In this document: positions 1 through 17,528 of the stretch, piece by piece
How the letters are laid out: each line of letters opens with the position of its first letter
Position numbering within the stretch: position 1 is the first letter of the stretch
Origin: an uncultured Caldilineales bacterium
Lineage (GTDB): Bacteria; Chloroflexota; Anaerolineae; J102
DNA length: 17,528 nt
Direction of reading: 5' to 3'
Assembly (NCBI GenBank): GCA_964565065.1
Contig: CAZMDD010000069.1
Coordinates: forward strand, 1 to 17,528
Program-made: the position numbers and the translations under genes
The notes under the pieces: model-generated
The model's database searches: none
What the model saw: the letters and a program-made list of their open reading frames with translations, nothing else
Told to the model about the DNA's origin: nothing

Positions 1-18
1 TTTTTGAGGATTTAGGCA

Positions 19-654: not shown

Positions 655-670
655 GAGCTCTCCTTTTGGC

Positions 671-2425: not shown

Positions 2426-2782
2426 ACGTCATCCTGGGCGGGAATGCAAACATGTATAAACCAGGGGTGTTTCGGATGTTTGCTCTCGCCTGCGCGTCAT
2501 GCGCCCGCGGGCAAGAAGATGCCGAATCGGGCACCATGGCCCATGTCGCGTTTGGCAACCACAACGCTCCAGCAGGTTTCGCCGTTTTTATGGGAAATCA
2601 TGGCCATAGTAAAATAGCGATGACATTTTTCTTCGGACAAAATGTTTTGACCAGTAGTGCAGTGGCGGTCTCTGCAACCTTTCACAATCATCAACTTATT
2701 TATGGTTGGTTATGCCCATGTTCGTCATAATGCGCACCTACTCAAGTACTGGCGGCTGGCAGAAATGAATTCGGTTCTAAAA

Positions 2783-2812
2783 TGTGCCATTGCAACCACA
2801 GATTTCTTATTG
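2783..2812. repeat. Fragment of intergenic repeat family 2 ('ttgcaaccacagatttcttattgg'). It overlaps the putative -35 region of the flotillin promoter.
   Basis: It shares 'GCAACCACAGAT(TTC)' with 5015-5040 and with 14864-14905. This is a direct reading of the sequence. Confidence 0.4.
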
Positions 2813-2839
2813 GCGAAAGTCAAGTGTTATAATTATAAT
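2804..2839 (+). promoter_or_regulatory. Putative sigma70-type promoter for the flotillin transcript. There are two overlapping candidates: an extended -10 'TGtTATAAT' at 2825-2833, or TTGGCG-N18-TATAAT at 2834-2839.
   Basis: Two perfect TATAAT hexamers sit at 2828-2833 and 2834-2839, with TG at 2825-2826 and a TTGGCG -35-like hexamer at 2810-2815. The predicted transcription start falls at about 2840-2847, which is the 5' end of repeat copy A. Confidence 0.35.
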
Positions 2840-2843
2840 TGGT

Positions 2844-2974
2844 AACGACTAACGTACCCGACTTCAATCACCGCAAAGACACTAAGAACACCAAGCATTT
2901 CAAAACTTTTTCTTTCTTTGTGCCTTTGTGGCTTCCTGTCTTAGTGGTTTCTAGCCGGGCTACCTTAGGAGTAA
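2844..2974 (+). repeat. Copy A of a 131-nt conserved intergenic element, a candidate structured RNA leader or MITE-like element. Its ends are imperfect terminal inverted repeats (AACGACTAACGTACCCG ... CGGGCTACCTTAGGAGTAA).
   Basis: It is about 94% identical (about 8 differences in 131 nt) to 9577-9707 in the same orientation. It lies 58 nt upstream of the flotillin start codon. The internal 11-bp hairpin arms CACUAAGAaCAC / GUGUCUUAGUG are conserved in both copies. Confidence 0.8.
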
Positions 2975-3032
2975 TGATTTTTTAAAGCTGTCTTAAAACA
3001 TGATTCGAGCCTGTCAGGCAGGAGGTGTGGTT

Positions 3033-4841
3033 ATGAATGTTGTAACATTAATTGTAGTGGTGGCTGCTGTTGTGGCTGTTTTGCTATTGCTATTTCGAGT
3101 TGGAACCAGGCTCATCGGCCTGGTGATTATCAGCGAAAATGAGGTGGGGGTTGTTATCCGCAAATTTGGCAAACCATTACCTCCGGGCAAATTGCTGGCG
3201 CTGAATAAAGAGGCTGGCTATCAGGCTGATACGCTGGCTCCGGGATGGCATTTTGGTTATTGGCTACCGCAGTTTAATGTAATAAAAGTACCTGTCACGG
3301 TGGTTCCACCCGGAGAGATTGCGCTGGTGGTGGCAGCGGATGGCGCATCGATTCCTGCTGAGCGCATTTTGGGCAAGGTGGTGGATTGCGATAATTTTCA
3401 GGATGCCCGCAAGTTTTTGACCAATGGCGGCGAAAAGGGACGCCAGTTGGGTATTCTCACCTCAGGAACGTATCGCATCAATACGGCACTGTTCAAAATC
3501 ATTTTGCGCCAAAATGCGGGCAGTATCGGCATGGACTCCGCTGAATTGCTGGTTTACACTGTTCATCCCGATAAAGTTGGCATTGTGACCACGCTGGACG
3601 GCAAGCCCATCGAAGAGGGTGAGATTGCCGGGCCTCCCATTTCGGGTCACGATAATTTTCAGAACGCGCAGGCTTTTTTGGAAAATGGCGGTCGCCGCGG
3701 TTTGCAGGAGCAAGTGTTGCTTTCTGGGTCGTGGAATCTGAACCCCTGGTTCGTCCAGGTCGAGCAATTACCCATGACCGAGATTCCCATTGGCTATGTG
3801 GGGATTGTCATCTCTTATGTTGGTAAGCCTATGGAGGATGTTAGTGGCGCGTCGTTCAAGCATGGCAATCTGGTCGAGCCGGGCCATAAGGGCGTTTGGG
3901 TTGTGCCCCTGAATCCTGGCAAACACCCCATCAATAGCCGTGTGATGAAGATTGAGCTGGTTCCCACAACCAACATCGTGCTCAATTGGGCTGTGCGTAA
4001 CGAAGCACATCGCTACGATGCCAATCTGTCTCCCATTACGGTGCGCTCGGGCGATGGCTTTGCTTTTAATATGGATGTTGCCCAAATTATCCACATCGGC
4101 TCACAAGAGGCTTCTAAAGTTATTTCCCGGGTGGGGTCTGTGCAAAATTTGGTGGATCATGTTTTGCAGCCCATTGTGGGCAATTACTTCCGCAATGCTG
4201 CCCAGCAATACACAGCTTTGGACTTTTTGGGAAGACGGGGCGAGCGGCAGAAAGAGGCGGCCAGTTATGTCCGCAAGGCTTTGCATACGTATGATGTGGA
4301 AGCGATCGATACGCTTATTGGCGACATTGCGCTGCCGGCGCAGTTGCTGGAGACGCAGACGAATAGGAAAATTGCCGAAGAGGAGCGCAAAACTTATGAA
4401 ATGCAGAAGATGGCGCAAGAGCAGCGGCAACTTTTGGTACGCGAAACATCTCTGGCCGATATTCAACGGGAAATGGTAAAGGCTGAGCGGGGTGTGCAAA
4501 TTGCCAAACTACAGGCCGATGCGACCATCGAGCAGGCTAAGGGTGATGCCGAAGCCACCCGTTTGCAGGCCGAAGGTGAAGCAGCCGCAATTTTGGCCAC
4601 AGGCAAGGCTAAGGCTACTGCGTATCGGGTAGGGGCTGAGGCTTTGGGCGAGCAACATTATGTGGCTTTGCAATTGATGCAGGTGGTCGGTAAAAGTGGC
4701 GTTCGCATTGTGCCCGATGTGTCGGTGAGTGGTGCGAATCATGGTGGCCTGGTGGACAGTTTGCTGGGCGTGATGCTGCATAATCAGATAAAGGAGGGAG
4801 GGTTGCTGCCAGAAGAAGCTGAAAGAACGCTTGCCGAGTAG
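3033..4841 (+). CDS. Flotillin-family (SPFH/band 7, YqiK-like) membrane protein. It has an N-terminal TM anchor, an internally duplicated 'DNFQ..FL.NGG' segment and a C-terminal Glu/Ala-rich coiled coil.
   Basis: The ORF track gives 3000-4841. I prefer the ATG at 3033 (MNVVTLIVVV...) because GGAGG sits at 3021-3025, 7 nt upstream of it. The C-terminal 'ERKTYEMQKMAQEQRQLLV...AKLQADATIEQAKGDAEATRLQAEGEAAAILATGKAKA' is typical of flotillins. Confidence 0.85.
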   Translation: MNVVTLIVVVAAVVAVLLLLFRVGTRLIGLVIISENEVGVVIRKFGKPLPPGKLLALNKEAGYQADTLAPGWHFGYWLPQFNVIKVPVTVVPPGEIALVVAADGASIPAERILGKVVDCDNFQDARKFLTNGGEKGRQLGILTSGTYRINTALFKIILRQNAGSIGMDSAELLVYTVHPDKVGIVTTLDGKPIEEGEIAGPPISGHDNFQNAQAFLENGGRRGLQEQVLLSGSWNLNPWFVQVEQLPMTEIPIGYVGIVISYVGKPMEDVSGASFKHGNLVEPGHKGVWVVPLNPGKHPINSRVMKIELVPTTNIVLNWAVRNEAHRYDANLSPITVRSGDGFAFNMDVAQIIHIGSQEASKVISRVGSVQNLVDHVLQPIVGNYFRNAAQQYTALDFLGRRGERQKEAASYVRKALHTYDVEAIDTLIGDIALPAQLLETQTNRKIAEEERKTYEMQKMAQEQRQLLVRETSLADIQREMVKAERGVQIAKLQADATIEQAKGDAEATRLQAEGEAAAILATGKAKATAYRVGAEALGEQHYVALQLMQVVGKSGVRIVPDVSVSGANHGGLVDSLLGVMLHNQIKEGGLLPEEAERTLAE

Positions 4842-4850
4842 TGTCTAAAA

Positions 4851-4909
4851 CCAAACGTACGGCGTACCTTCATCTGCCAGGTGCGCCGTACGTTGGCTAA
4901 TGTTTTTTT
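4851..4909 (+). terminator. Rho-independent terminator of the flotillin gene.
   Basis: The stem CCAAACGTACGGCG (4851-4864) pairs with CGCCGTACGTTGG (4884-4896), giving about 13 bp with one bulge. A T7 run follows at 4903-4909, and the TAG stop is at 4839-4841. Confidence 0.6.
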
Positions 4910-4949
4910 GGGCTTTAGTCAAAGCGCTGCGTTGTTAAGTAGCTGCGCA

Positions 4950-5120
4950 TTTGAACCTTGAGAAAAGGGCCTGCGTATCTCGACCAACGGCGAAGCTAGC
5001 TTTGCCGCCACGGCAACCACAGATGGCACAGATTTCGCAGATTTTTCTTGATGCTTTTTCCCTTTTTCTTGGTGCCTTGGTGCCTTTGAGCTCTTGGTGG
5101 TGCACTCCGGGTAGTAACGC
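4950..5120. repeat. Intergenic repeat family 2, locus X. The 5' part (4950-5060) is about 70-76% identical to 14808-14920 in direct orientation. The 3' part (5062-5120) resembles the 3' half of the 131-nt element (GTGCCTTGGTG...CCGGGTA).
   Basis: I aligned the two loci by hand. They share 'tttgaaNcttgagaaaagNgcctg', 'ggcaacc' and 'tttcttgatgcttttt'. In addition, 5019-5047 'CCACAGATGGCACAGATTTCGCAGATTTTT' is the reverse complement of 14916-14945, with 14 nt matching exactly. Confidence 0.6.
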
Positions 5121-5183
5121 ATCGTCGCATTTTAGCTTTCATAGCGTCACCTACTTAAGAGATCTTCCGAAGTCTACTTAGCA

Positions 5184-6203
5184 TCAATTTTTAATAGCAA
5201 AGGGTAAAAAGATGGGGTTGAGTGACGAGAGGGTGATGGTGGCTGAGGCTTCATCGGTGAGGTCGCCAGTATCGCGAATGACGATGCGTATGGTTTTTGG
5301 GCCCAGGCCATCAAAAGTGCGCTGATACACGCTCGACGCATTTTTCCAACTGGTATCGCAATCACCGCTGTTATCCCAATCGTAGCAGACTTCCAGATAG
5401 CTGATGTCATCCAAAGCATCGGTGCTGGCAGTGGGATCCAGGGTGAAGAGGGTGGTAAAATCGCCCGTCGTTGGTGTGATGCTGAGCCGGGCTGTGGGCG
5501 GTGCGTTGGGTTGTTCCGGTGTGACATCCACCGAGCAGGTGACGCTATCGGAGAGCATGCCGCGGTCGCGCACTTCGAGCTCGACTTCTTGAATGCCATG
5601 TCTGTTAAATTGGTGTGTTTGGTCTTGCGTGGCACTTTGCCAATCTGTGTCATACCCACCGCCGCTGTACCAGGCCCAACGAGCAGAAAGGTCGGCGGTG
5701 CTGTCTTGGGCATCGGTGCTGGTGGCGGCGCTAAAGGTGAAGGTCGTGCCAACCGGGCCCGAGGCGGGCGTTACGACGCAACGAGGAACGGGCGCTGTGT
5801 TAGAGCCAGGATCGCCTACCACGATGTCGTGGGTCACAGAATCGGTGGCGTCGTCATTGTCTTTTACCAACATGCGCACGGTGTAGGTTCCCGGGGTGTC
5901 GTAGCGGTGTCGAAGCGAAGGATTGGCGGGGTTGAGCCAGCTTGTATCATAAACACCATCATTCTCCCAATCATAACGAATCTGCAACCATTCCAGAGAG
6001 TCTTCGTTGTCGTGCGTGCTCGAAGGATCAAAGTAGTACCAAGTTCCTACTACGCCGCCGCTGGGTGGATCGATGGTGAAGGCTGCCACGGGCGGGGTGT
6101 TGGCGGGATGCAGGGGGGTGTTGCCGGCCACAACGGGCACGCTCAGAAAAATGAGCATCATCAGTAACGTCCATGCCAGACGCGTTGCCGATATGTGAAA
6201 CAT
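5184..6203 (-). CDS. Secreted protein with three tandem PKD domains and a signal peptide.
   Basis: Three repeats end in PKD-type motifs (YDWENDGVYDTSW, WAWYSGGGYDTDW and YDWDNSGDCDTSW). The ORF track starts it at 6221. On the minus strand GGAGG lies 10 nt upstream of the internal ATG at 6203 (MFHISATRLAWTLLMMLIFLSVPVVAG). That start gives a clean signal peptide. Confidence 0.8.
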   Translation of the reverse strand: MFHISATRLAWTLLMMLIFLSVPVVAGNTPLHPANTPPVAAFTIDPPSGGVVGTWYYFDPSSTHDNEDSLEWLQIRYDWENDGVYDTSWLNPANPSLRHRYDTPGTYTVRMLVKDNDDATDSVTHDIVVGDPGSNTAPVPRCVVTPASGPVGTTFTFSAATSTDAQDSTADLSARWAWYSGGGYDTDWQSATQDQTHQFNRHGIQEVELEVRDRGMLSDSVTCSVDVTPEQPNAPPTARLSITPTTGDFTTLFTLDPTASTDALDDISYLEVCYDWDNSGDCDTSWKNASSVYQRTFDGLGPKTIRIVIRDTGDLTDEASATITLSSLNPIFLPFAIKN

Positions 6204-6428
6204 TTTTGCAGCTACCTCCATATCATGGGAATGTAAAGATCTTACCTAATGTGCAACTTTTTATGACACATCAACGAGCTTATCAAGCATCTTCTGCTTA
6301 ACAAGCCGACGAAAATGGACGAAAGGACAAACGTGGAGGAAATAAAATCGTCCACATTCGTCTAATTGGGTCCATCTTCGTCATGGAAAAATGACAAGCT
6401 CGCAATTTGGAATTAGGAAACTTATTGC

Positions 6429-6445
6429 AAACGACTTAGTCGTTA
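6429..6445. repeat. A 'solo-termini' palindrome AACGACTtAGTCGTTAC. It equals the 5' end plus the 3' end of the 131-nt element with the internal roughly 115 nt absent.
   Basis: Observed sequence: aacgacttagtcgttac. Joining the copy B termini (aacgact | tagtcgtaac) predicts aacgacttagtcgtaac, which differs at one position. Confidence 0.45.
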
Positions 6446-6825
6446 CAAATTATCCACCACTACACACAACTTGAGTAAATTGTAAATGATTGTTGACAAA
6501 AAGATGAAATTTTATCTGTCGTTTTGTTGAACAGAATGGCTAGTTGTACAAAAAAAGCTTCATGGCAGTATGCTCAGTGTTGGTGTGAACCTCTGCATCC
6601 TTTCACCCCCGCCCGTCGAAAAACGTACCCAGGCGGGTCTGTGACTCGGCGGGTTGCCCATCCGCTCATGCACGTTCGCTCGCAGGGGCGAGAGCTTGAT
6701 GCACACACCCTGCCAACAAAGAACGCCGCCAAACCGATACAGGTACTTTCGGAAAGTGTAAAGAGTACGTTAAAATAGAGCTGATCGACACAAGTAGTTG
6801 ACCAACACGCCTTAGGAGCTTTAAC

Positions 6826-8817
6826 ATGACAACTTTGCCCGCGCATTACGATAAAATTGATCAAACACTGGCCAATACCTTACGCCTGCTGGCAGTGGAT
6901 GCTGTTCAGGAAGCAAACTCGGGGCATCCCGGCCTGCCCTTGGGGGTTGCCGACTTTGTAAGCGTGTTGTGGACGCGCTTTCTCAAACATGATCCCGCAC
7001 AGCCTGAGTGGCCCGATCGTGACCGCTTTGTGCTTTCTGCCGGACATGGCTCTGCTCTGCTGTATTCGCTGCTGCATCTTTTCGGCTATCCCTTGCCACT
7101 GGATGAACTTAAGCGCTTTCGGCAATTGGGCGCCATCACCGCCGGCCACCCCGAATATGACCCGGCTCTGGGCATCGAGCTGACCACCGGGCCCCTGGGC
7201 CAGGGCATTAGCAGCGCGGTGGGTATGGCTCTGGCCGAACGCTGGCTGGCTCAGCGCTTTAATCGCCCCGGATTCACACTGGTTGATCACACCACCTGGG
7301 TGCTGGCCTCGGATGGCGATCTTATGGAAGGCGTTTCATCTGAAGCAGCCTCGCTGGCCGGACACTGGGGCCTGGGTAAACTTATCGTGCTGTATGATGA
7401 CAATCATATCTCCATCGATGGCAACACTCAGGTTAGCTTTACCGAAGATGTCTTGCAGCGTTTTTCATCCTATGGCTGGCACATCAGCCGTGTGGATGGT
7501 CACGACATGGCTGCAGTCGATGCCGCCATTCGCACAGCTCAGGCCGAAACACAACGTCCCAGCATCATCGCCTGCCGCACGCAAATCGGTTTTGGCAGCC
7601 CCATGGTCAACACCGCCAAAGTTCACGGTTCACCCTTGGGCCCGGCGGGCGTGCGGGCCACCAAAGAGGCATTGGGCTTTCCTGCCGATGAAAAATTCTA
7701 CGTGCCCGCGGCTGTGCGCCCGCGCATTGCCCAGGCCTTACGCCCGGGCGCCCAGGCACGCGCCCACTGGCAGGCGCAGCTACAAGCCTACCGCCAGGCC
7801 CATCCCCAACTGGCCGCCCAGTGGGATGAGCAAATCAGCGGCAAATTACCTGCAGGTTGGCAAAACTCCCTGCCCGACTTCAGCAACCAAAAACCGATGG
7901 CGACCCGGGCCACCTCGGGCCAAGTCATCGCAGCACTAACCCCGATATTGCCCACCCTGGTGGGAGGTTCAGCCGATCTTTCCGGCAGCAACAAAACCAA
8001 TCCCCCCAACCAGCAAACCATCAACCGCCAAAACTACCACGGCAACTACATCCACTACGGCGTGCGCGAACATGCCATGGGCGCCATCATGAATGGTCTG
8101 GCCGTACACAACCTGCGTCCCTTTGGCGGCACATTCTTAGTCTTCTCCGATTACCTGCGCGGCGCCATTCGTCTGGCCGCTCTGATGAAACTGCCAGTCA
8201 TCTACATCTTCACCCACGACAGCATCGGCGTCGGTGAAGATGGCCCCACCCATCAACCCATCGAGCATGTTACCTCGCTGCGACTCATTCCCGGTCTGGT
8301 TACCCTGCGTCCAGCCGATGGTAACGAAACCGCCAAAGCCTGGCAAGTGGCCCTGGAACGGCAAGGCCCCACCGCTTTAATTCTTACCCGGCAAGCCTTG
8401 CCGCAAATGACCGCAAAAAACAACGGCCTGCACCGCGGCGCCTACATCTTGCAGGATAGTGCAACCTCTCGCCCCGACATCGTGCTGATTGCCAGCGGCT
8501 CTGAAGTCGCTCTGGCCATGGAAGCCGCCCAAACCTTGCAGGCGCAAAACATTCAGGCACGGGTTGTCTCTATGCCCAGTTGGGAGCTATTCGATGCTCA
8601 GGAAGCAGCCTATCGGGCCCAGGTGCTGCCCGCAGATGTGCCTAAACTGGCCATCGAAGCTGGCGCCGGCCTGGGCTGGCGTCGCTACGTGGGGCTGGAT
8701 GGAGCAGTACTCAGCATCGATAGCTTTGGCGCTTCGGGCCCGGGCTCCGCAGTCTTCGCAAAATTTGGTTTCACCGTCGAAAACATTATCGCCATGGTCA
8801 GACAACTACTGGCCTGA
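6826..8817 (+). CDS. tkt: Transketolase
   Basis: The 663-aa product starts with a canonical transketolase N-terminus and TPP-binding region (…ANSGHPG.P.G…SAGHGS..LYSLLHL.GY…GPLGQG…), and its length is typical of the family. AGGAG sits 8 nt upstream of the ATG. Confidence 0.95.
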
Positions 8818-8837
8818 CCCACACATCCCAAAACACT

Positions 8838-9509
8838 ATGACCGCAAAACTTTCCCCCTCCATCCTTTCCGCCGACTTCACCCGCCTGGGGCAACAAGTG
8901 CGCGACGCTGCCGCCGCGGGTGCCGAATACATCCACATCGATGTGATGGATGGGCAATTTGTGCCCAACATCACCATCGGGCCTGTCATCGTCAAGGCCC
9001 TGCGTCCCATCGCCGATGAAACGGGCGTCATCCTGGATGTGCATCTGATGATTGAGCAACCTGAAAACATGCTGGCAGCCTTTGCCCGGGCCGGCGCAGA
9101 CATACTCACCGTACACATCGAAACCTGTCCCCACATCCACCAAACCATTCAGCAAATCAAAGCTCTGGGCATGAAAGCGGGCGTCACCCTGAACCCGGGA
9201 ACCCCGCTGGTCATGCTGGAAAACATCCTGGCCGACGTTGACCAGATTTTAATCATGTCGGTGAATCCGGGCTTTAGCGGACAACGCTACATTGCCGCCA
9301 GCACCGACAAAATTGCACGCTTACGAGCCATGCTCAACACCCGCGGTCTGCAACATGTCGCCATCGAGGTCGATGGTGGTGTCAAGCCGGAAAACGCCGC
9401 TGAAATTGTGGCTGCCGGTGCCAACATCCTGGTGGCAGGCTCCGCAATCTACAACCAAAAAGCCAGCATTGCCGAAAACATCGCCGCCTTCCGGCAAGCG
9501 TTATCGTAA
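8838..9509 (+). CDS. rpe: Ribulose-phosphate 3-epimerase
   Basis: The 223-aa product has the signature N-terminus 'SPSILSADFTRLG...HIDVMDGQFVPNITIGP' and 'DVHLM...NPGFSGQ'. It lies immediately downstream of tkt, so the two are probably co-transcribed. Confidence 0.95.
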   Translation: MTAKLSPSILSADFTRLGQQVRDAAAAGAEYIHIDVMDGQFVPNITIGPVIVKALRPIADETGVILDVHLMIEQPENMLAAFARAGADILTVHIETCPHIHQTIQQIKALGMKAGVTLNPGTPLVMLENILADVDQILIMSVNPGFSGQRYIAASTDKIARLRAMLNTRGLQHVAIEVDGGVKPENAAEIVAAGANILVAGSAIYNQKASIAENIAAFRQALS

Positions 9510-9576
9510 CCTGCAAGAGTTGATCCAATCACCAAACCATCCGATACAGCAGAGAGCTGTTACATCAGGCAAAAAT

Positions 9577-9707
9577 AACGACTACCGTACCCGACTTCAG
9601 TCACCACAAAGACACTAAGAACACCAAGCATTTCAAAATTTTTTCTTTCTTTGTGCCTTGGTGGCTTCGTGTCTTAGTGGTTTCTAGCCGGGCTACCTTA
9701 GTCGTAA
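9577..9707 (+). repeat. Copy B of the 131-nt conserved intergenic element. It sits 68 nt after the rpe stop and 136 nt before the lipoprotein gene start.
   Basis: It is about 94% identical to 2844-2974. The terminal stem is better in this copy (ACGACTA..CGTA.CCCG pairing with CGGG.TAC..TAGTCGT). The internal P2 arms are identical to copy A. An apical 'CACCAAG/CTTGGTG' pairing is perfect here and has one mismatch in copy A. Confidence 0.8.
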
Positions 9708-9726
9708 CCATTATTCATGCAATGTT

Positions 9727-9761
9727 ACACAATTGCCTCTTGAAATGTCTCATGATTGTGT
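9727..9761. promoter_or_regulatory. Inverted repeat ACACAAT-N21-ATTGTGT flanking a TTGAAA -35-like hexamer upstream of the lipoprotein gene. It is a candidate operator or promoter region.
   Basis: The dyad arms are at 9727-9733 and 9755-9761, and TTGAAA is at 9740-9745. I found no convincing -10 hexamer. Confidence 0.25.
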
Positions 9762-9843
9762 CATCATAAAGATGCACATGGGAACTTGTTTCGCAGTGCC
9801 GACGTTAACATGATAACACCCCCCTTCCCATCAGGAGAAAACC

Positions 9844-10782
9844 ATGAGACGCATCCACCTTATTATCATCCTCTTGCTATTGGTCACGCTGGCACTAACA
9901 GCTTGCAGCGGGTCAGCTCCGACGCCTATGGTGGTCGAAAAATCTGTTGGACAGGCTGTTTCTGCCGATAATGACATGCTCGCCCCCCGTGAAGCGCCCG
10001 CCGCCCCTATGGCATCATCAGCCCTTGCGCCTGCCAGTCAGCAGATGCAAAGCACCCGCAAAATCATCTACAACGCAGATATTGCGCTCATCGTGCAGGA
10101 TACCGAGCAAACAACGCAAGCCATTGCCGAGATGGCCGCCAGCATGGGGGGCTACGTGGCCAGCATGAATGGCTATCATCAGGGCGAGCAGATGATTTAC
10201 GACATCACCATCCGCATCCCCTCCGATAAATTCGAGGCCGGGCGCAGCTCATTGCGGCAAATGGCGGTGCGGGTCGAGCATGAAAATGTTAGCACCAACG
10301 ATGTCACCGATCAGTACTTTGACATCGACGCCCGCCTGCGCACCCTGACCGCTACTGAAGAAGAACTCACCGAGTTGCTCAAAGAAACCCGCAAAAATGG
10401 CGGCAAGGTCGAGGATGTGATGAAAGTTTATGACCGCCTGATTCAAATCCGTAGCGACATTGAATCCTTGCAGGGGCAATTGAATCGTTTGGATAAACTG
10501 GTAGGCTTCTCTACGCTGAACATTCATCTGCAACCGCACATCCTGTCCACCGCCATCGAAAATGATGATTGGCATCCGGCAGAGATTGTTCACGCCAGCA
10601 TCAACACCTTGGTCAATGCCCTCACCGGTCTGGCCACACTGCTCATCCGCCTGGTCATCGTGGTCTTGCCCATTGCCCTGATTTTAATTCTACCGCTGGT
10701 ACTGCTGGTGTGGCTGGTGAGCAAATGGCGCCAACGGGCCCGAACTGTCAAAAACGACGAAACCTCCCAGGATGACTCATAG
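9844..10782 (+). CDS. Lipoprotein, DUF4349-like. It has a lipoprotein signal peptide ending in Cys, a central coiled-coil region and a C-terminal hydrophobic anchor.
   Basis: The N-terminus reads 'MRRIHLIIILLLLVTLALTAC|SG' (lipobox). The C-terminus reads 'LLIRLVIVVLPIALILILPLVLLVWLV' (TM). AGGAG sits 8 nt upstream of the start. The DUF4349 name comes from my memory of that family's architecture and is not verified. Confidence 0.8.
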   Translation: MRRIHLIIILLLLVTLALTACSGSAPTPMVVEKSVGQAVSADNDMLAPREAPAAPMASSALAPASQQMQSTRKIIYNADIALIVQDTEQTTQAIAEMAASMGGYVASMNGYHQGEQMIYDITIRIPSDKFEAGRSSLRQMAVRVEHENVSTNDVTDQYFDIDARLRTLTATEEELTELLKETRKNGGKVEDVMKVYDRLIQIRSDIESLQGQLNRLDKLVGFSTLNIHLQPHILSTAIENDDWHPAEIVHASINTLVNALTGLATLLIRLVIVVLPIALILILPLVLLVWLVSKWRQRARTVKNDETSQDDS

Positions 10783-10851
10783 CCCCCTTTGTTCCTAACG
10801 CACACTGCCCCGATGATAAGCCCTTTTCATTCATCTTTTCGGTCAACCATC

Positions 10852-11259
10852 ATGCGAATCCTCACCTTTTTAGCCAAATCCTTTGCCTGGCAGCCTTTTA
10901 GCCAAACACTGACTCAAGCACCCGCGGCAGAGCCTGGCAGCATGACACAAGTTGTCGTGGCCTTTATTCAAGTCGAGGCCAAAGATGAAGCAGATGAAAA
11001 ACGGGCCTTTCGTCATCTGCTCAAACATCTCAAATGGCTGGCCAACAAAAACGACCTGCGCAACATCGTTTTGCATTCCTTCACCCATTTGGGCGGACAA
11101 AATGCCTCGGCAGATTTTGCCGAATCACTGCTGCAAAACATGGCTCAACGCCTGCGCAACACTGGCTACCAGGTCGAAATCACCCCCTTTGGCTGGTTCT
11201 GTTCCTGGCAAATCGATGTCATGGGCCAAAGTTTGGCCAAGGTGTACAAAGAAATCTGA
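10852..11259 (+). CDS. Small protein resembling the archaeal-type threonyl-tRNA synthetase N-terminal editing domain (tRNA-Thr_ED, DTD-like fold) as a free-standing bacterial protein.
   Basis: Translated from the ATG at 10852, 'MRIL...VVVAFIQVEAKDE...NIVLHSFTHLGG...YQVEITPFGWFCSWQ' aligns to my recollection of Pyrococcus ThrRS residues 1-140 ('MRVL...VLVAFISVEKVDE...NVFVYPFAHLSS...FNVGKAPFGYYKAFK'). The ORF track starts at a TTG (10789). I saw no SD for any candidate start. Confidence 0.55.
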   Translation: MRILTFLAKSFAWQPFSQTLTQAPAAEPGSMTQVVVAFIQVEAKDEADEKRAFRHLLKHLKWLANKNDLRNIVLHSFTHLGGQNASADFAESLLQNMAQRLRNTGYQVEITPFGWFCSWQIDVMGQSLAKVYKEI

Positions 11260-11266
11260 CGCGCAG

Positions 11267-13735
11267 CTACGAAGTTGGGCGCTCCTGTTGCGCCCGTTCA
11301 GCCATCAACTCATGATAGGCCTTCACCCATTTGGCCATCTCTTCATCTCGCCGCTTGCTCTGCTGCATAGCGGCGTTGATTTTTTGCTTTTCGATACGGG
11401 AAAAAATATCGGCGTGAACCGTTTTGGGGTCGGGCACAAAATAAAATTCGATATTGCCTTTGGTGGCGGCAGTCTGAATAGAGACATTGCCGTAATTAAA
11501 AATATAGGCGATAAAATGAGGAATCTGAAATTCCACATTTTCTACACGTTCCAACGATAACTTAATGCGATCTTCCTGCAAGCCCAGCGGCTTCTTGTTC
11601 ACCTGCTCGATGAAGTGATCCGTTACGATGTAGAAATCGTTGCGCCAATCCACCCATTGCCAGACCAGCCACAAAATACCGCCAATCAAAAGGGGAAAGG
11701 CCAGCAGCAGCGCACCATTGCGGATTTGTGTGGCATAAGGTGTATTCCGGGAAATGTCACGAATCACAAAAAATAAAACAATGGCCCCAATAGCCAATCC
11801 CAGAGGCAAGAATGATTTTACCAGAAGTCCAAACCAATGCTTTCGCCAAATAAGTCGCTCACCCAACCGCGGCTTGCTGCTGGAAAAACTTTTAAGGAAT
11901 GCTCGCAACCAACCCAACACTTTATTATAGGTTGGTGCGCTCCCAGCCGTGCGCACCTCAACATCCTCCATCAGCGCCCGCACATCAGTGACCAAATCGG
12001 TCTCCATATCTAGTTCTTTGCGTAAGTAGCGTTTGATGTAATCCTCAGGTTCCTCCATCTGGGCGTGCAGCAGCTTTATCCGTTCGGTGGCGCCAGATAA
12101 AATTTTGATAATTTCATCTGGGTGTGCCAAGTAATCGAACTTTATCTCACCTTCTTCTGCGGCGGTGCTGATGTAAAGCTGTCCGTACCCCAGCATTTTG
12201 GCAAAAAATCCACGCTCCATGTGCGAATTCTGAATTTTGTCGATGGGCGCGGCATTCTGACGTTCACTCATCAGGGGCACAGCTTCTTCGTGCATGATTC
12301 GGGTATGGGTGATGGTGAAATAATCATTCCTATAATCAGCAATCGCCCATCCTCCCATTATTAAAAGCCACAGCAACACCGGCAAAAACTTCAGCCAAAA
12401 CGAGAAATGAATCCCCAGCAACGAAAGAGAAATCAAAATGGCCAGATAAAGTAACGCTACCAGCACCGGAATCAATAAGCGTTTAACCAGAACAATGGGG
12501 TGTCGCCGTTTGCGGAAGAGGGGGCCTTCCTCTGGCTGCAGGGCTGTGCTGGCAACCGCATCTACGCTGGCCAGCATGTGCAGTTTGGCTTCCTTACGTC
12601 GCCATATTTCGGGGTGAGCATTAGAAAATGCCTGAAAATCGAGATAATGGATTTGCAGCCAGCTTACCGGCGTTGTCGCCTCTACCGTGATTTCAGCCAG
12701 TTGATTTTGCTGCATGATGTTTTTCTCGCCCCAGGTAAATCCTGGCATCACCGGTTCCGGCTCTTCGGGCACACCGATGCTGTTGTAGGTATATTTTCGC
12801 GCTTCGCCCCTGGTCAAAATGCGATAGTGAGGATCGGGCTGCTGACTACGGGAGATTTTTGTGCCAGGTCGATGTGCGTAAACCTGCATGACATAGCCTG
12901 CCAGGTACCGAATCTCAGGGCGGGTAAGCATCTTGAAAAATGGCGCCCGACTCAGCATCAGCTCAATGTCGATGGGCTCACGCGTCCACACATTTTGCGG
13001 ATGTCGTTCTGTTAGCGCCACAAAATCAACCTTGGGCACTCGATAACAAGAGACCTTTGTCTCGGCGACAATGCGGCATTTGTAGTAGCCCCCCGTAAAT
13101 ACAACGCGAAGTCCCAGCACGCTATTGCTGCTGCGCCACCACTCCCGCTGAAATAAATTCGATTGCAAGTGTACACGTCCCTGTCGGACAATCATCACAT
13201 CTTTGACTGGGGCGTTCTCCTCAGCCAGCACCCTTCCTCGGGGAATATCCTCGAATTTTACCAAATCGCTCAGCCAGTCGATTTCGGGATTGGTCAAAGG
13301 TGCGAAATAAGGAATCGCCCGCAAACGTCCGGCCACGCGGGCCCGGTCGAATTTGCGGCCCCAGGCAGGATAATGAGATGCCAGTGTTACCAACGACTTG
13401 ACATCGATGCTGATGAGCTCCACCTCGCGGGCAGCCCGGGCGTCGCCCAACTGCGGCGCATGAATATCCAAACGCAGCCGACCCAGCACTTCGCCCTCAT
13501 TCACCACTCGCCACAGCTCCCGCTGCCCCTCATCCCGCCGCAAAAGCGTTACCTGCCCCCGTTTCACCAAAAAGAGACGCCGAATCACCGCGTCCTGCCG
13601 AAACAGCAGCACGCCCGGTTTGATGGGTTGCGATGTTGGCACTGCGCGAATCCGCTTCAGCGCTTCATCAGGAATCCCCTGGAAGAGCTCGAACTCACGC
13701 AAGGCTGCGACAACATCAAAAGTGGAATCAGGCAT
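11267..13735 (-). CDS. Membrane signalling protein of unknown output. It has three N-terminal cNMP-binding-like (CAP effector) domains followed by two TM-anchored bacterial PH (bPH_2, YdbS/YdbT-like) modules.
   Basis: The 822-aa product has cNMP-like cores 'GEVLGRL...DARAAREVELISI', a second weaker one, and 'GFTWGEKNIMQQNQLAEITVEATTPVSWLQI'. Two hydrophobic hairpins are each followed by a roughly 100-aa segment like YdbT ('...YISTAAEEGEIKFDYLAHPDEI...' and '...VSIQTAATKGNIEFYFVPDPKTV...'). Confidence 0.8.
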   Translation of the reverse strand: MPDSTFDVVAALREFELFQGIPDEALKRIRAVPTSQPIKPGVLLFRQDAVIRRLFLVKRGQVTLLRRDEGQRELWRVVNEGEVLGRLRLDIHAPQLGDARAAREVELISIDVKSLVTLASHYPAWGRKFDRARVAGRLRAIPYFAPLTNPEIDWLSDLVKFEDIPRGRVLAEENAPVKDVMIVRQGRVHLQSNLFQREWWRSSNSVLGLRVVFTGGYYKCRIVAETKVSCYRVPKVDFVALTERHPQNVWTREPIDIELMLSRAPFFKMLTRPEIRYLAGYVMQVYAHRPGTKISRSQQPDPHYRILTRGEARKYTYNSIGVPEEPEPVMPGFTWGEKNIMQQNQLAEITVEATTPVSWLQIHYLDFQAFSNAHPEIWRRKEAKLHMLASVDAVASTALQPEEGPLFRKRRHPIVLVKRLLIPVLVALLYLAILISLSLLGIHFSFWLKFLPVLLWLLIMGGWAIADYRNDYFTITHTRIMHEEAVPLMSERQNAAPIDKIQNSHMERGFFAKMLGYGQLYISTAAEEGEIKFDYLAHPDEIIKILSGATERIKLLHAQMEEPEDYIKRYLRKELDMETDLVTDVRALMEDVEVRTAGSAPTYNKVLGWLRAFLKSFSSSKPRLGERLIWRKHWFGLLVKSFLPLGLAIGAIVLFFVIRDISRNTPYATQIRNGALLLAFPLLIGGILWLVWQWVDWRNDFYIVTDHFIEQVNKKPLGLQEDRIKLSLERVENVEFQIPHFIAYIFNYGNVSIQTAATKGNIEFYFVPDPKTVHADIFSRIEKQKINAAMQQSKRRDEEMAKWVKAYHELMAERAQQERPTS

Positions 13736-14132
13736 AATTTCGGGAAACCAGCAATAAACAACGGCTCAATACAATCATCATACCTATTTTAACACGTTAT
13801 GGCAACCTTGCCCCCCTGGCGGACACATCAACTTGAGAGGATTGCCAGTCTCGCCAAGCCGAAAATGGCTTGCGCCATAGGGTTGCGGAGGACAAGAAGA
13901 TATTTTGCGGGAATGCCGCGGGGAAGTTGGTGATTCTCTCTGGATAGTGATGAACTGTTGCATTTCAAATTCTGACGGGGGCCCGCTGCTTCCGATTTTA
14001 CAAATCTCGAGTTTAGAATAAAACTTTGATAACACTTTAATGAGATGATAAAGGGGAGGCCGCTATGGCCTTCATTGGAATCACGCTGTGGTTGATTCTG
14101 TCACAACACTCCCAGTAGTTACGAGGTGAACT

Positions 14133-14789
14133 ATGAAGAAGCGAACCAAACTTGTTACCGGTGCGGTGCTTGCACTGCTGGCTCTGGTCATTGTGCCCAT
14201 GGCTGTTTTTGCGCAACAGGGCCCGAAACCGCGACCGAACCATGAACATGCCCTGATGCGCGCCCTGACTGAAACCGCGGCCCAAACCCTGGGCATGACC
14301 CCGCAGGAATTTGTACAGGCCATGCGTCAGGGTAAGACCCCGGCACAACTGGCCGAAGAAGCGCAAGTAAACCCCGATGATCTGGCCGCAGCCATGCAAA
14401 ACACCTGGAATACCCAGGGCGAGCAGCTCATTGCCACATTTATCGAGCAGGGTGCGCCAGCCAAGGTCGGGCAACGCGAGGCTGAGCGTCGGCAGCGGGC
14501 GCTGCGACGTTGGACCAGGCTGGCAGCAGAGACATTAGACATGTCACCGCGAGTCTTTGTTCAGGAGCTACGTTCGGGCCAAAGTGCCGCCCAAATTGCT
14601 GAAGCACACGGTAGCTCGGGCCAGGCTTTGGTCGATGCCGTGGTAGCAGCGGAACAAGCGCATCTTGATCAGGCTGTGGCCGATGGCAAGATGACCCAGG
14701 AGGAAGCGGATAACCTTTTGCCCAAAATCATCGAGCAAGCCAACAAATGGGTGGTGCGAGTGCCGCCCACCAATCCGCCTGGAAACTGA
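14133..14789 (+). CDS. Secreted protein with a signal peptide and two tandem copies of a roughly 45-70 aa alpha-helical repeat.
   Basis: The N-terminus reads 'MKKRTKLVTGAVLALLALVIVPMAVFA'. The repeat 'LTETAAQTLGMTPQEFVQAMRQGKTPAQLAEEAQ' corresponds to 'LAAETLDMSPRVFVQELRSGQSAAQIAEAHG'. GAGGTG sits 5 nt upstream of the ATG. Confidence 0.75.
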   Translation: MKKRTKLVTGAVLALLALVIVPMAVFAQQGPKPRPNHEHALMRALTETAAQTLGMTPQEFVQAMRQGKTPAQLAEEAQVNPDDLAAAMQNTWNTQGEQLIATFIEQGAPAKVGQREAERRQRALRRWTRLAAETLDMSPRVFVQELRSGQSAAQIAEAHGSSGQALVDAVVAAEQAHLDQAVADGKMTQEEADNLLPKIIEQANKWVVRVPPTNPPGN

Positions 14790-14807
14790 TGCAACATGGC
14801 ACTGACG

Positions 14808-15040
14808 TTTGAAACTTGAGAAAAGTGCCTGTGCATTTTGGCAAACGGTGAAAAATAGCTTCGTCGCCATGGCAACCGAAAAGTGCATAGCTTGCACAAA
14901 TTTCTCTTGATGCTTTTCTGCGAAATCTGTGAAGACCTGTGGCTAAACCAAGCAACCACTGGGCTTCACGGATTTTGCAGATTTTTTTGACGGCTTTCTG
15001 CATTTTTCTGTGAAAATCTGTGCCATTTCTACCTTAGCTT
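14808..15040. repeat. Intergenic repeat family 2, locus Y. It contains a direct copy of the X 5' part plus inverted copies of the 'CACAGATTTCGCAG' module, and it ends with 'CTACCTTAG', which is also present in the 131-nt element.
   Basis: Hand alignment gives about 70-76% identity to 4950-5060. Internal near-repeats are 'ttctgcgaaatctgtgaaga' (14916-14935) and 'ttctgtgaaaatctgtgcca' (15005-15024). An inverted repeat CACAAATTTC ... GAAATCTGTG lies within it. Confidence 0.6.
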
Positions 15041-15166
15041 TTTGGGGCGGTCATTCTGGCGAACACCGAAACATCTATCGGGAAAATTGGACTTCTGCAC
15101 TGTTTGCGGTTAACATTAGCAATTATTTTTTGTCTCTCACTAAAAATCAAAAGGAAGGAGAAGATT

Positions 15167-16297
15167 ATGTCTCGTAAAATTTATCCAGTTATCCTACTGC
15201 TCTTGTTGTTGAGTTTGGTGCTGGCTGCCTGCACAACACCCACTGCTAAAGAAGCTGCCCCGGCAAAAGAGGAACCCACTGCCCAACCAGCAGCGCCCGA
15301 GCCCACGGCTGAACCTGCTCAGGAATCCCCCAAAGCTGACACCCTGCTCCCCCCCATGGACCCGCCCGAGAAGGTCAAGGTGGCCTATGTGCCCATCATG
15401 AAGTTTGCCACCATGTACGTAGCTGCCGACCGGGGCCTGTTTGAAAAATATGGTTTGGATGTAGAAATCGAACGGGTAAAATCGGGCACCGAGGCCATTG
15501 CCTTCCTTACCAATAATTCGGTGGATGTGGGCGGCATTGCCATCGTCACTTCGCTGTGGAATGGCTGGAGCGAAGGATTGCCCCTGCGCATCATCGCCCC
15601 CGGTGCGCTGGAGCCTTACGAAAATAGCCCCACCAAGGTCGTGGCCCGCAAAGAACTGGTAGATAGCGGCAAGGTCAAAACCATGGCTGACCTGAAAGGC
15701 CTGAAGGTGGCGCTGGCTGGCGGCCCCGGCAGCGGCGGCGAATACCTGCTCTCCAAAGCCCTGGAGCGGGGCAATCTCACCATCCGTGATGTAGAAACGG
15801 TGAAGATGGGCAACGCCGATATGCCCGCGGCCTTTGAAAATGGCTCCATCGATGCCGCATTGCTGGGCTCTCCCTATGCCGACCAAGTCATCGATGCCGG
15901 ACATGGTGTAGCCATTGCCACCGATTTAACCCCGGGCCTGATGACAGTGGCCTTTGTGGGCTCCGAAAACTTTGTCACCAATCGCAAAGATGTGGCGCAG
16001 CGCTTTGTGTTGGCCCTGACCGAGGCTTCCCGCATGATGCAGGGTGATGATTACCTTTCTGATGAAAACATTGCTGCATATCTCAAATATGTCAACTCCA
16101 CCGAAGAGGCCATTCGCAAAGGCCGCCGCGTGGTTTATGACCCAAATATGAAAATTCCGGTAGAGGGGCTGGCCGATGTAGAGCGCACCCATCGCGAAAA
16201 TGGCCGCACCGAATACACCGACCCCATCGACCTCCATTCGGTGGTGGATAGCTCCTTTGTCGAGAAGGCCCTGGAGCTTTTGGGCGGGGCACAATAA
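15167..16297 (+). CDS. ABC transporter substrate-binding lipoprotein of the NitT/TauT (NMT1/SsuA/TauA-like) family.
   Basis: The N-terminus reads 'MSRKIYPVILLLLLLSLVLAAC' (lipobox), followed by a Pro/Ala/Glu-rich linker. GGAGG sits at 15154-15158, upstream of the ATG at 15167 (the ORF track starts at 15104). The gene is adjacent to the ATPase and permease genes of the same transporter class. Confidence 0.9.
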   Translation: MSRKIYPVILLLLLLSLVLAACTTPTAKEAAPAKEEPTAQPAAPEPTAEPAQESPKADTLLPPMDPPEKVKVAYVPIMKFATMYVAADRGLFEKYGLDVEIERVKSGTEAIAFLTNNSVDVGGIAIVTSLWNGWSEGLPLRIIAPGALEPYENSPTKVVARKELVDSGKVKTMADLKGLKVALAGGPGSGGEYLLSKALERGNLTIRDVETVKMGNADMPAAFENGSIDAALLGSPYADQVIDAGHGVAIATDLTPGLMTVAFVGSENFVTNRKDVAQRFVLALTEASRMMQGDDYLSDENIAAYLKYVNSTEEAIRKGRRVVYDPNMKIPVEGLADVERTHRENGRTEYTDPIDLHSVVDSSFVEKALELLGGAQ

Positions 16298-16310
16298 GCT
16301 ATCGTATGAT

Positions 16311-16348
16311 GAGCGCAGCAGGAGATAGTTCTTGCTGCGCTCTTTTTT
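16311..16348 (+). terminator. Intra-operon Rho-independent terminator or attenuator between the substrate-binding-protein gene and the ATPase gene.
   Basis: GAGCGCAGCAGG (16311-16322) pairs with CTTGCTGCGCTC (16331-16342) as a 12-bp stem with one G·U. The loop is 8 nt and a T6 run follows at 16343-16348. Confidence 0.65.
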
Positions 16349-16363
16349 CGATACAAGGATCCC

Positions 16364-17146
16364 ATGACCACCAAAATCACCGCCAACGCTGTCAACAAAA
16401 GCTACGATACCCCGCGCGGCGAACTTGTAGCGCTGCAAAACTTCAATCTTGACGTGCAGGAAGGGGAATTCGTGTGCATCGTGGGGCCTTCTGGTTGCGG
16501 CAAATCAACCTTTTTGCGCATTCTGGCGGGGCTGGAGGCGCAAAGCTCGGGCCAGATAACCATCGTGCCGGGCAAAGAGCCGGGCAAACCCCTGAACAAT
16601 GTAGTCTTTCAGGACTACGCCATCTTCCCCTGGAAAACGGTCATCGACAATGTGGCCTTTGGTCTGGAGATGCGGGGCATCCCCAAAAAGGAGCGTTTGG
16701 CTGTTGCCAGACGTTGGCTGGAACGGGTGGGGCTGGGGCGTTTTGCCCAGTACTATCCCCACCAGATCTCGGGCGGGATGAAACAGCGGGTGAGCATCGC
16801 CCGCGCCCTGGCCAATGATCCCGAGGTGCTGCTGATGGATGAGCCGCTGGGCGCGCTGGATGCCCAGACTCGGGCCGTGCTGCAAGAGGAACTGCTGCGC
16901 ATCTGGGAAGAAACCCGCAAAACAGTGGTTTACATCACCCACAGCATCGATGAAGCAGTGCTTTTGGGCGATAAAGTGGTACTGATGACCGCTCATCCCG
17001 GAACCAACAAAGCCACCTTCGAGGTGGCGATTCCCCGACCCCGCACCCTGGCGGTGCAAAGCTCACGCGCATTTCGGGAGCTAACACTGGCCATTTGGGA
17101 ATCATTGAAGGATGAGGTGATGCGGGCCATGGAGGCGCAACGATGA
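16364..17146 (+). CDS. ABC transporter ATP-binding protein (NitT/TauT family, SsuB/TauB-like).
   Basis: Walker A 'GPSGCGKST', ABC signature '[15 protein letters not shown]', Walker B '[11 protein letters not shown]' and an H-loop 'ITHS' are all present. Confidence 0.95.
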
Positions 17147-17528
17147 AACATTGGCAAGAGGTGCAGAAGAAGGTGTGGTTGCTATTGGCGGGCCTGGCGC
17201 TCTTCAATGGCATCATGCTGGCGGCGCATCTTTGGCGGCCCTACTTGTGGCTGGGGCTGCTGGTGGATATGGCATTGTTGGTGGCCCTGGCCGATTTCGT
17301 AGCCCGAGCCATCCCCAAACGCTGGCAGCGGGCTTATGATTTGACGCTGGCCATCGGTTTTCCCATCTTGCTCCTGGTGGCGTGGGAGCTGATTGTGCGG
17401 GCCGAGATTCTGAATCCGCGCTGGTTTCCGCCCCCTTCGCGCATCGCTGCAGCGTTGTGGCAACTTTCCACCCAGGTGGATAAATTTTCGCATACCAGTT
17501 TGTGGGGACGCCCCTGGCTTATCCCTCG
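17143..17528 (+). CDS. ABC transporter permease (NitT/TauT family). The N-terminal 128 codons are present and the gene runs off the window end.
   Basis: The ATG at 17143 overlaps the TGA of the ATPase gene (ATGA), which indicates translational coupling. Hydrophobic helices and a 'RWFPPPSRIAAALWQL' segment are typical of SsuC/TauC-type permeases. The gene is absent from the ORF track because no stop codon occurs within the window. Confidence 0.85.
   Translation, partial: MKHWQEVQKKVWLLLAGLALFNGIMLAAHLWRPYLWLGLLVDMALLVALADFVARAIPKRWQRAYDLTLAIGFPILLLVAWELIVRAEILNPRWFPPPSRIAAALWQLSTQVDKFSHTSLWGRPWLIP

Follow-up and report, generated by a model that had tools for sequence, protein, structure and literature searches.

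A free-standing bacterial homolog of the archaeal threonyl-tRNA synthetase editing domain, with a remodelled pocket, in an uncultured Caldilineales bacterium

We analyzed a stretch of 17,528 nucleotides from an uncultured Caldilineales bacterium of the Chloroflexota (GenBank assembly GCA_964565065.1, contig CAZMDD010000069.1, positions 1 to 17,528 of the forward strand; hereafter, the window), focusing on a gene at 10852–11259 on the plus strand. Its 135-residue product is a free-standing homolog of the editing domain that archaeal threonyl-tRNA synthetase (ThrRS) carries at its N-terminus (NTD), with the fold also found in DTD and ATD (the DTD-like fold). Within a widespread bacterial family, already catalogued but still uncharacterised, it is an ordinary member, typical of a Cys-type sub-clade. 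As judged from alignments, the mark of this family is a coupled change of two pocket positions—the loss of the lysine equivalent to Lys121 of the Pyrococcus abyssi domain (PabNTD), together with the gain of a lysine or arginine at the cross-subunit position 134—and the cysteine that stands for Lys121 in the window protein is not itself the key feature. A trans-acting aminoacyl-tRNA deacylase is the likeliest function, in our judgement with moderate confidence, and the substrate is probably not simply Ser-tRNA(Thr), since the amino-acid pocket is remodelled.

The open reading frame (ORF) extends from an ATG at 10852 to a TGA ending at 11259, and its product matches PF08915 (tRNA-Thr_ED) from residue 1 to 135 against profile positions 1–137, at 125.7 bits (E=1.7e-36) versus a gathering cutoff of 30.2 bits—homology far beyond chance. 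An upstream TTG at 10789 was ruled out as the start because the N-termini of the homologs and the Pfam profile both begin at residue 1. Among PDB sequences, phmmer matched ThrRS editing domains from P. abyssi, M. jannaschii and A. pernix (E=1e-11 to 4e-4). Two NCBIfam models were matched below threshold through the N-terminal domain alone, namely archaeal ThrRS PRK03991 (72.8 bits, cutoff 484) and the Ser-tRNA(Thr) hydrolase PRK14938 (37 bits, cutoff 362). The window protein is a single domain that ends at its own stop, without an anticodon-binding or catalytic domain. The initial annotation, made from the sequence without database searches, had proposed such a full-length free-standing homolog in a bacterium and named PF08915 as the expected match; both expectations are borne out, and the Pyrococcus motifs it cited agree with the printed phmmer alignment (VAFISVE/VAFIQVE, PFAHLS/SFTHLG and PFGYYKAF/PFGWFCSW for PabNTD and the window protein, respectively).

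Structure prediction points to the same placement. The AlphaFold2 monomer model, built with 52 homologs, had a mean pLDDT of 95.6 and a pTM of 0.90, and all Foldseek matches against the PDB at E<0.001 were proteins of the DTD-like fold, with no other fold among them. PabNTD matched with a template modeling (TM) score of 0.92, a root-mean-square deviation (rmsd) of 1.7–1.9 Å and an identity of 25–27%; MjNTD reached a TM score of 0.90 and ApNTD 0.85–0.89, and the next matches were DTDs (~0.61–0.69) and mouse ATD (~0.55). The model therefore superposes on solved NTD, DTD and ATD structures, which define the fold, and its overlay on the Pyrococcus domain supports the DTD-like fold that had been suggested beforehand. 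Taken over the archaeal ThrRS structures (PabNTD, 1Y2Q/2HL1; MjNTD, 4RRF; ApNTD, 4RR6), the window protein shares the Pfam family and the fold (TM 0.88–0.93, rmsd 1.7–2.0 Å), but its identity to them is 23–27% and, unlike them, it is not fused to a synthetase.

The resemblance to DTD and ATD, which are homodimers of ~145–160 residues acting on the aminoacyl-A76 end, lies in the free-standing state, the fold itself and a non-lysine residue at the Lys121 position. However, TM scores of 0.55–0.69 and identities of 8–15% set the window protein apart from both. DTD is characterized by the motifs -SQFTL- and -NXGPVT-, a cross-subunit Gly-cisPro and a conserved Arg7, and ATD by -PQATL- and -TNGPYTH- with a Gly-transPro (PMC5802732); the window protein has none of these motifs and no cross-subunit Gly-Pro, carrying HSFTHLG and GQSLAKVYK instead. 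Moreover, no match to the Pfam DTD family (PF02580) was obtained even at E values up to 10, and ATD is restricted to Animalia whereas the host here is bacterial. A functional analogue of DTD or ATD that clears D-aminoacyl-tRNAs, or Gly and Ala mischarged on the wrong tRNA, is accordingly quite unlikely in our view. The common fold, the activity of NTDs on Gly-tRNA(Gly) (PMC4491819) and one JGI record that names a homolog 'D-Tyr-tRNAtyr deacylase' speak for it, but DTD is reported throughout Bacteria except cyanobacteria (PMC5802732) and a replacement is not obviously needed.

Proteins of this kind were defined earlier by Mukai et al. 2017 (mBio, PMC5424206, Text S1) as free-standing 'tRNA-Thr-ED' proteins without an anticodon-binding domain. 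These authors described them as widely distributed in prokaryotes, noted that the residue equivalent to Glu135 of the M. jannaschii (Mj) domain differs while the other aminoacyl-adenosine contacts are conserved, and suggested aminoacyl- or hydroxyacyl-tRNA hydrolysis, with no experiment on bacterial members; the loss of Lys121 drew no comment. Their Data Set S1 includes dozens of bacterial sequences from cultured species, with carriers including Caldithrix abyssi, Desulfovibrio africanus, Syntrophobacter fumaroxidans, Thermodesulfatator, Desulfarculus, Marinilabiliales and CPR Microgenomates. The window protein fits this description in its length of ~135 residues, its single-domain architecture, the replacement of Glu135 (Mj)/Glu134 (Pab) by Lys130, the SF(A/T/N)HL(S/G) loop, the K-x-x-K-W-x-A-x-K helix and the LA(K/R)V(F/Y/W)K C-terminus. 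The crenarchaeal ThrRS-ed, a trans-editing Ser-tRNA(Thr) hydrolase (Korencic et al. 2004, as cited in PMC5424206), likewise keeps its editing module apart from the catalytic core, and the window protein may, by analogy, act in trans as well; unlike ThrRS-ed, in which the editing domain is attached to an anticodon-binding domain, it stands entirely alone. The SepCysS-linked archaeal members of the Mukai set (PMC5424206), as far as the sequences considered here go, keep the archaeal lysine pocket, unlike the window protein.

Our searches found the family in abundance. A word-indexed search yielded 1368 clusters at 90% identity, of which the best 120 were all 105–151 residues long; the named records among these came from Chloroflexi, Anaerolineae, Caldilineales and Myxococcales metagenome-assembled genomes (MAGs), and the closest relatives of the host are Anaerolineae/Caldilineales MAGs. 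An exhaustive HMMER search of 1.84 billion representatives gave 385 clusters at 50% identity, and the top 150 were almost all single-domain proteins of ~135 residues, down to 32% identity. Scanning one genome per species located at least 59 loci encoding free-standing proteins of ~135 residues (39–75% identity) in Chloroflexota (Anaerolineae, Caldilineales, Chloroflexia), Myxococcota, Planctomycetota, Binatia, 'delta proteobacteria', Margulisiibacteriota and Bacteroidota, some of them on contigs of 0.8–3 Mb. The view that a stand-alone module would be unusual in a bacterium, as first suggested, does not hold: copies in at least 59 species-level genomes are not rare, and the family had been catalogued in 2017 (PMC5424206).

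Within this family, the window protein groups with the bacterial free-standing proteins. We built two profile hidden Markov models (HMMs) for comparison, from 13 bacterial free-standing sequences taken from the Mukai data set and from 14 archaeal ThrRS/ThrRS-ed domains; the window protein scored 161.4 bits on the former versus 79.1 bits on the latter. In a neighbor-joining tree (no bootstrap), it fell inside the free-standing set, in a broad sub-clade with Cys at 117 and Lys at 130 (C/K), next to sub-groups with the characteristic states L/R, N/R and N/K, while the archaeal domains with Lys and Glu at the corresponding positions formed one tight clade. The Cys117/Lys130 sub-clade, comprising Chloroflexota, Myxococcota, Planctomycetota and Binatia, is unrepresented among the sequences drawn from the Mukai data set, which have Asn, Leu or Tyr at 117.

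Some of the long matches looked like fusions that could hint at a functional partner, but most proved to be fragmentary chimeric gene calls. The one clean fusion is a metagenomic protein of 272 residues (P0268), in which an archaeal-type tRNA-Thr_ED domain with a Lys/Glu pocket (174 bits) is followed by a YbaK/ProX-type tRNA_edit domain (PF04073)—two different aminoacyl-tRNA editing modules in one chain, with a C-terminus that seems cut. Because its pocket is of the archaeal Lys/Glu type, this fusion says nothing about the sub-clade of the window protein.

The breadth of the family also bears on whether the gene is what it seems. Archaeal contamination in a bacterial bin, a recent horizontally transferred island or a decaying pseudogene would each turn the present finding into an artefact, and we regard this explanation as effectively refuted. 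It could draw on the fact that the carriers found were all MAGs, two of them with implausible labels: the loci L055 ('Nitrosopumilus sp.') and L019 ('Enterobacteriaceae') hold typical bacterial free-standing copies, Asn-type and Cys-type, respectively, and are probably mis-binned contigs and not true hosts. Against it, gene callers found the same 135-residue product, with the same bacterial neighbors (tkt, rpe, the DUF4349 gene and a gene for a protein with cyclic-nucleotide-binding (cNMP) and bPH_2 domains), in four independent assemblies: NCBI GCA_054029655.1 (contig JBPNTL010000139.1), two JGI metagenomes and one Logan assembly. Synteny with the cNMP/bPH_2 gene extends to 18 Chloroflexota loci, carrier contigs reach 0.8–6.6 Mb, and homologs occur in cultured bacteria (PMC5424206). 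Furthermore, the frame is intact, the composition of the surrounding DNA is ordinary with no GC anomaly, and purifying selection acts on the gene (dN/dS at most 0.07–0.18 versus eight relatives, at saturated dS). Around the gene, scans for promoters and terminators returned numbers close to the shuffle expectation and were not used.

The pocket of the archaeal domain provides the reference for interpreting the substitutions. Ahmad et al. 2015 (PMC4491819) listed seven PabNTD side chains within 6 Å of the scissile bond: Pro80, Phe81, Ala82, His83, Tyr120, Lys121 and, from the other monomer, Glu134. In that system, catalysis relies on the 2'-OH of A76 together with an oxyanion hole formed by the main-chain N atoms of Phe81 and Ala82, His83 is structurally important, the discrimination between Ser and Thr is set by main-chain atoms of residues 117–121, and the side chains of Tyr120 and Glu134 are dispensable for both activity and discrimination. 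The role of Lys121 is to position the catalytic water, not to act as a nucleophile. The corresponding residues in the window protein are Ser76, Phe77, Thr78, His79, Phe116, Cys117 and Lys130. They lie in three segments, all on the plus strand: the active-site loop at residues 75–81 (HSFTHLG; 11074–11094), aligned with Pab Y79-P80-F81-A82-H83-L84-S85; the strand of the RNA-protein interface at residues 111–119 (TPFGWFCSW; 11182–11208), aligned with Pab 115–123 (APFGYYKAF) and holding Cys117 (codon 11200–11202), which the phmmer alignment places opposite Lys121; and the C-terminal cross-subunit segment at residues 125–133 (GQSLAKVYK; 11224–11250), which stands in place of archaeal GHPL(A/S)ELSR and includes Lys130 (codon 11239–11241), aligned with Glu134.

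Set against the archaeal domain, the replacements in the window are Tyr79→His, Pro80→Ser, Tyr120→Phe, Lys121→Cys, Pro131→Ser and Glu134→Lys, so that the archaeal loop YP(F/Y)AHLS is absent along with the Tyr120/Lys121/Glu134' set; His79 and the oxyanion-hole pair Phe77-Thr78 remain aligned with their archaeal counterparts, and the VE motif is also retained. The contrast is systematic. All 13 archaeal synthetase-linked domains compared have Y79-P80-H83-Y120-K121-P131-E134, whereas in a sample of 210 free-standing proteins—weighted towards the clade of the window protein—a non-lysine residue at 117 goes together with Lys or Arg at 130 in 198. In the same sample, His79 is kept in 207 proteins, His75 in 204, Ser or Thr at 76 in 200 and Ser127 in 163. 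The cross-subunit segment is conserved as G(E/D/Q)SLAKV(Y/W)K, and Phe77 and T111-P-F-G114 are invariant. Residue 117 itself varies across the 210 proteins (C in 129, L in 24, N in 23 and S in 13, as well as H, V, T, F, Y, I or D). The 119 closest homologs have either C (108) or S (11) there. By genome locus, Cys marks Caldilineales-type Chloroflexota and the other members of the sub-clade named above, and Asn the Anaerolinea/Anaerolineales/Chloroflexia clade, with an occasional H or S.

By this pattern, Cys117 is the sub-clade state of a variable pocket position and not an invariant catalytic residue. The initial annotation had correctly seen that the Lys121 equivalent is replaced by Cys, but it took this lysine as catalytic and proposed altered chemistry. 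The first point is inaccurate, since the lysine positions water (PMC4491819) and DTD has Met in its place; altered chemistry through the cysteine is unlikely, since close relatives show C, S, N or H at this position and other sub-groups of the free-standing family L, V or F. The coupled Glu134→Lys and Tyr120→Phe changes and the family-specific basic helix described below had been missed. For the same reason—the variability at 117—a role of Cys117 as a new catalytic nucleophile is unlikely. A metal site formed by His75-x3-His79 and Cys117, comparable to the HxxxH/CxxxH zinc site of ThrRS-N2 and AlaX, was considered and is likewise unlikely, given that variability and a His75 that is likely core-facing. 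His75 aligns with Pab Tyr79, which was mutated together with core residues 11, 42 and 123 in biphenylalanine core-design structures (PDB entry titles), so an orientation of its side chain into the hydrophobic core is most likely; these core positions, Pab Ile11, Phe42, Tyr79 and Phe123, correspond to Phe11, Phe38, His75 and Trp119 in the window protein.

A second family feature lies in helix α-1. Residues 49–67 (EKRAFRHLLKHLKWLANKN; 10996–11052, plus strand; helix 49–66 in the model) contain K58, H59, K61, W62 and K66, all invariant in the clade, and the median net charge of the helix is +5 in 77 free-standing proteins versus −2 in 14 archaeal domains—basic in the former and acidic in the latter. 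This helix may present a tRNA-binding surface, supplying the tRNA affinity that the synthetase body gives in archaea.

Every characterized protein of the DTD-like fold is a homodimeric aminoacyl-tRNA deacylase working at an RNA-protein interface (PMC4491819, PMC5802732). A trans-acting deacylase is favored for the window protein because this holds for all characterized members of the fold, and because structural elements of the NTD are conserved in it—the oxyanion-hole loop, the equivalent of His83 and the A76-packing PFG strand. On this basis, a homodimer would engage a tRNA at its aminoacylated A76 end and hydrolyze the ester with assistance from the RNA, the water being activated by the A76 2'-OH and the oxyanion hole being provided by main-chain amides of the SF(T/A)HL loop. 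The positive charge would have moved from a strand of the same subunit (Lys121) to the C-terminal segment of the partner (Lys130'), and Lys130' might take over the water-positioning role of Lys121. Such a relocation has an analogy in the conserved Arg that migrated within the fold at the switch of function from DTD to ATD (PMC5802732). The basic helix would stand in for the absent synthetase body in tRNA binding. The idea of a trans-editing factor with an altered substrate, put forward at the outset, therefore survives as the most reasonable function, but the substitution behind it is family-wide and not specific to the cysteine.

Several observations weigh against a trans-acting deacylase. 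Replacing Lys121 by Met abolishes or severely reduces activity in three NTDs, with displacement of the catalytic water (PMC4491819), and a pocket without this lysine could be inactive unless compensated. We found no functional study of bacterial free-standing tRNA-Thr-ED proteins in the literature. Additionally, among 60 loci compared by all-against-all ORF clustering with Pfam checks, no neighbor was common across phyla or related to translation; aminoacyl-tRNA synthetase, elongation-factor and SepRS/SepCysS genes were not found next to the gene, and the neighbors differ between clades. Nevertheless, loss of the lysine is compatible with activity, since DTD naturally has Met at this position and yet is active (PMC4491819). 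As for earlier accounts, the bacterial free-standing proteins are absent from a 2024 review of editing factors, and a 2022 follow-up to the Mukai study discusses SepRS fusions and archaeal stand-alone copies only.

If the protein is a deacylase, one substrate to consider is that of its archaeal relatives. A trans-acting Ser-tRNA(Thr) deacylase could serve as a backup to the N2 editing domain in bacterial ThrRS, or replace it should the host ThrRS lack N2. The closest solved structures and the Pfam family are indeed those of Ser-tRNA(Thr) deacylases, and the main-chain discrimination segment 117–121 (PMC4491819) is kept as FGWFC; this explanation stays alive because discrimination is hard-wired in main-chain atoms (PMC4491819). 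We nonetheless hold it to be rather unlikely. Systematic differences from all 13 archaeal synthetase-linked domains affect the four side chains nearest the substrate, the K121M variants cited above were severely compromised, and the window protein belongs to a separate free-standing clade. Moreover, bacterial ThrRS normally comes with an N2 editing domain of its own (PMC11295145), the archaeal domain prefers archaeal tRNA(Thr) with U73, and no linkage to thrS was found.

The surroundings of the gene are those of a stand-alone housekeeping gene and offer no clue to the substrate. In the window, a DUF4349 gene on the same strand, not a recurrent neighbor, precedes it by 69 bp, and its stop is 7 bp from that of a convergent gene (11267–13735, minus strand) for an 822-residue protein combining two cyclic-nucleotide-binding domains with a bacterial PH (bPH_2) domain; the convergent arrangement is kept in the 18 syntenic loci, which are of Caldilineales/Anaerolineae type. 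Further upstream are transketolase (tkt, 6826–8817) and ribulose-phosphate 3-epimerase (rpe, 8838–9509). In six loci from Binatia and 'delta proteobacterium' MAGs (L041, L042, L044, L046, L049 and L050), the homolog follows trpG by 0–11 bp in the order trpE-trpG-X, with an SH3-domain lipoprotein gene and no other trp genes downstream, and HEAT-repeat genes are the neighbors in Planctomycetota. A linkage to tRNA genes, as in the archaeal SepCysS-linked copies, was rejected: the window contains none, and a tRNA gene was found near the homolog in two of the 60 loci and in none of the other 58. In both cases it is a tRNA-Pro(GGG) gene 0.1–0.9 kb downstream (L026, 8542–8618, and L051, 9311–9385, both on the minus strand; from a Planctomycetota MAG and an unclassified MAG). 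An association with SepRS/SepCysS is unsupported, with no such neighbors; the bacterial SepRS carriers that Mukai et al. 2017 (PMC5424206) name in their main text are Dehalococcoidia-class Chloroflexi, and Anaerolineae, Caldilineae, Planctomycetes and Myxococc* are not mentioned there.

Peptidase genes recur upstream in two Chloroflexota clades. About ten Anaerolineae loci (L029–L047 and L059) have, directly upstream and in the same orientation, an M19 membrane dipeptidase gene that itself follows a PIG-L deacetylase gene, and five Chloroflexota loci (L010, L012, L014, L015 and L017) have a gene for a 900–960-residue M28 peptidase in that position; this may be a coincidence or a link to amino-acid recycling. 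These neighbors could also be taken in favor of a further explanation, namely that the protein hydrolyzes other 3'-acylated adenosine esters (hydroxyacyl-, N-acyl- or non-proteinogenic aminoacyl-tRNA, or aminoacyl-nucleoside metabolites) or binds tRNA 3' ends without catalysis. The replacement of Glu134, which contacts the seryl moiety in the NTD, by Lys or Arg in 198 of the 210 proteins argues for different ligand electrostatics, and hydroxyacyl-tRNA was raised as a substrate by Mukai et al. 2017 (PMC5424206). However, the peptidase neighbors are clade-specific, the basic helix favors a polyanionic ligand such as tRNA, and the strongly conserved oxyanion-hole loop and His79 speak for retained catalysis. 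We therefore regard this explanation as unlikely.

Three other ORFs in the window deserve mention. A 584-residue protein (671–2425, minus strand) has a phosphoribulokinase/uridine-kinase family domain as its C-terminal half (residues 313–510) and ~300 N-terminal residues without a Pfam match, with tkt and rpe nearby; an unusually long SPFH/Band-7 protein of 613 residues (3000–4841, plus strand) carries its domain at residues 261–474 only; and a 211-residue ORF (19–654, minus strand) has no Pfam match.

The three characterized branches of the DTD-like fold, DTD, the archaeal NTD and ATD, all guard the fidelity of translation, and each has been informative on RNA-assisted catalysis and on the switching of substrates by small changes in the pocket. 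The free-standing bacterial family is a fourth branch of this fold, strongly conserved and spread over six phyla or more, with cultured sulfate reducers, Bacteroidota, CPR and Chloroflexota among its carriers. More tentatively—and we would give this less than an even chance—the Cys/Lys sub-clade and the family as a whole might form a fourth functional branch, with a substrate outside those of the known editing factors (hydroxyacyl-, N-blocked, acidic or non-proteinogenic aminoacyl-tRNA), a water-positioning lysine that migrated from 121 to 130' and a residue 117 that tunes the specificity of each sub-clade. The family thereby frames a well-defined and testable gap, that is, which error, if any, it corrects in bacteria that already have ThrRS-N2, AlaX, ProX and DTD. 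The window gene alone adds no new principle; the interest lies in the relocation of charge between the Lys121 and Glu134 positions across the whole family.

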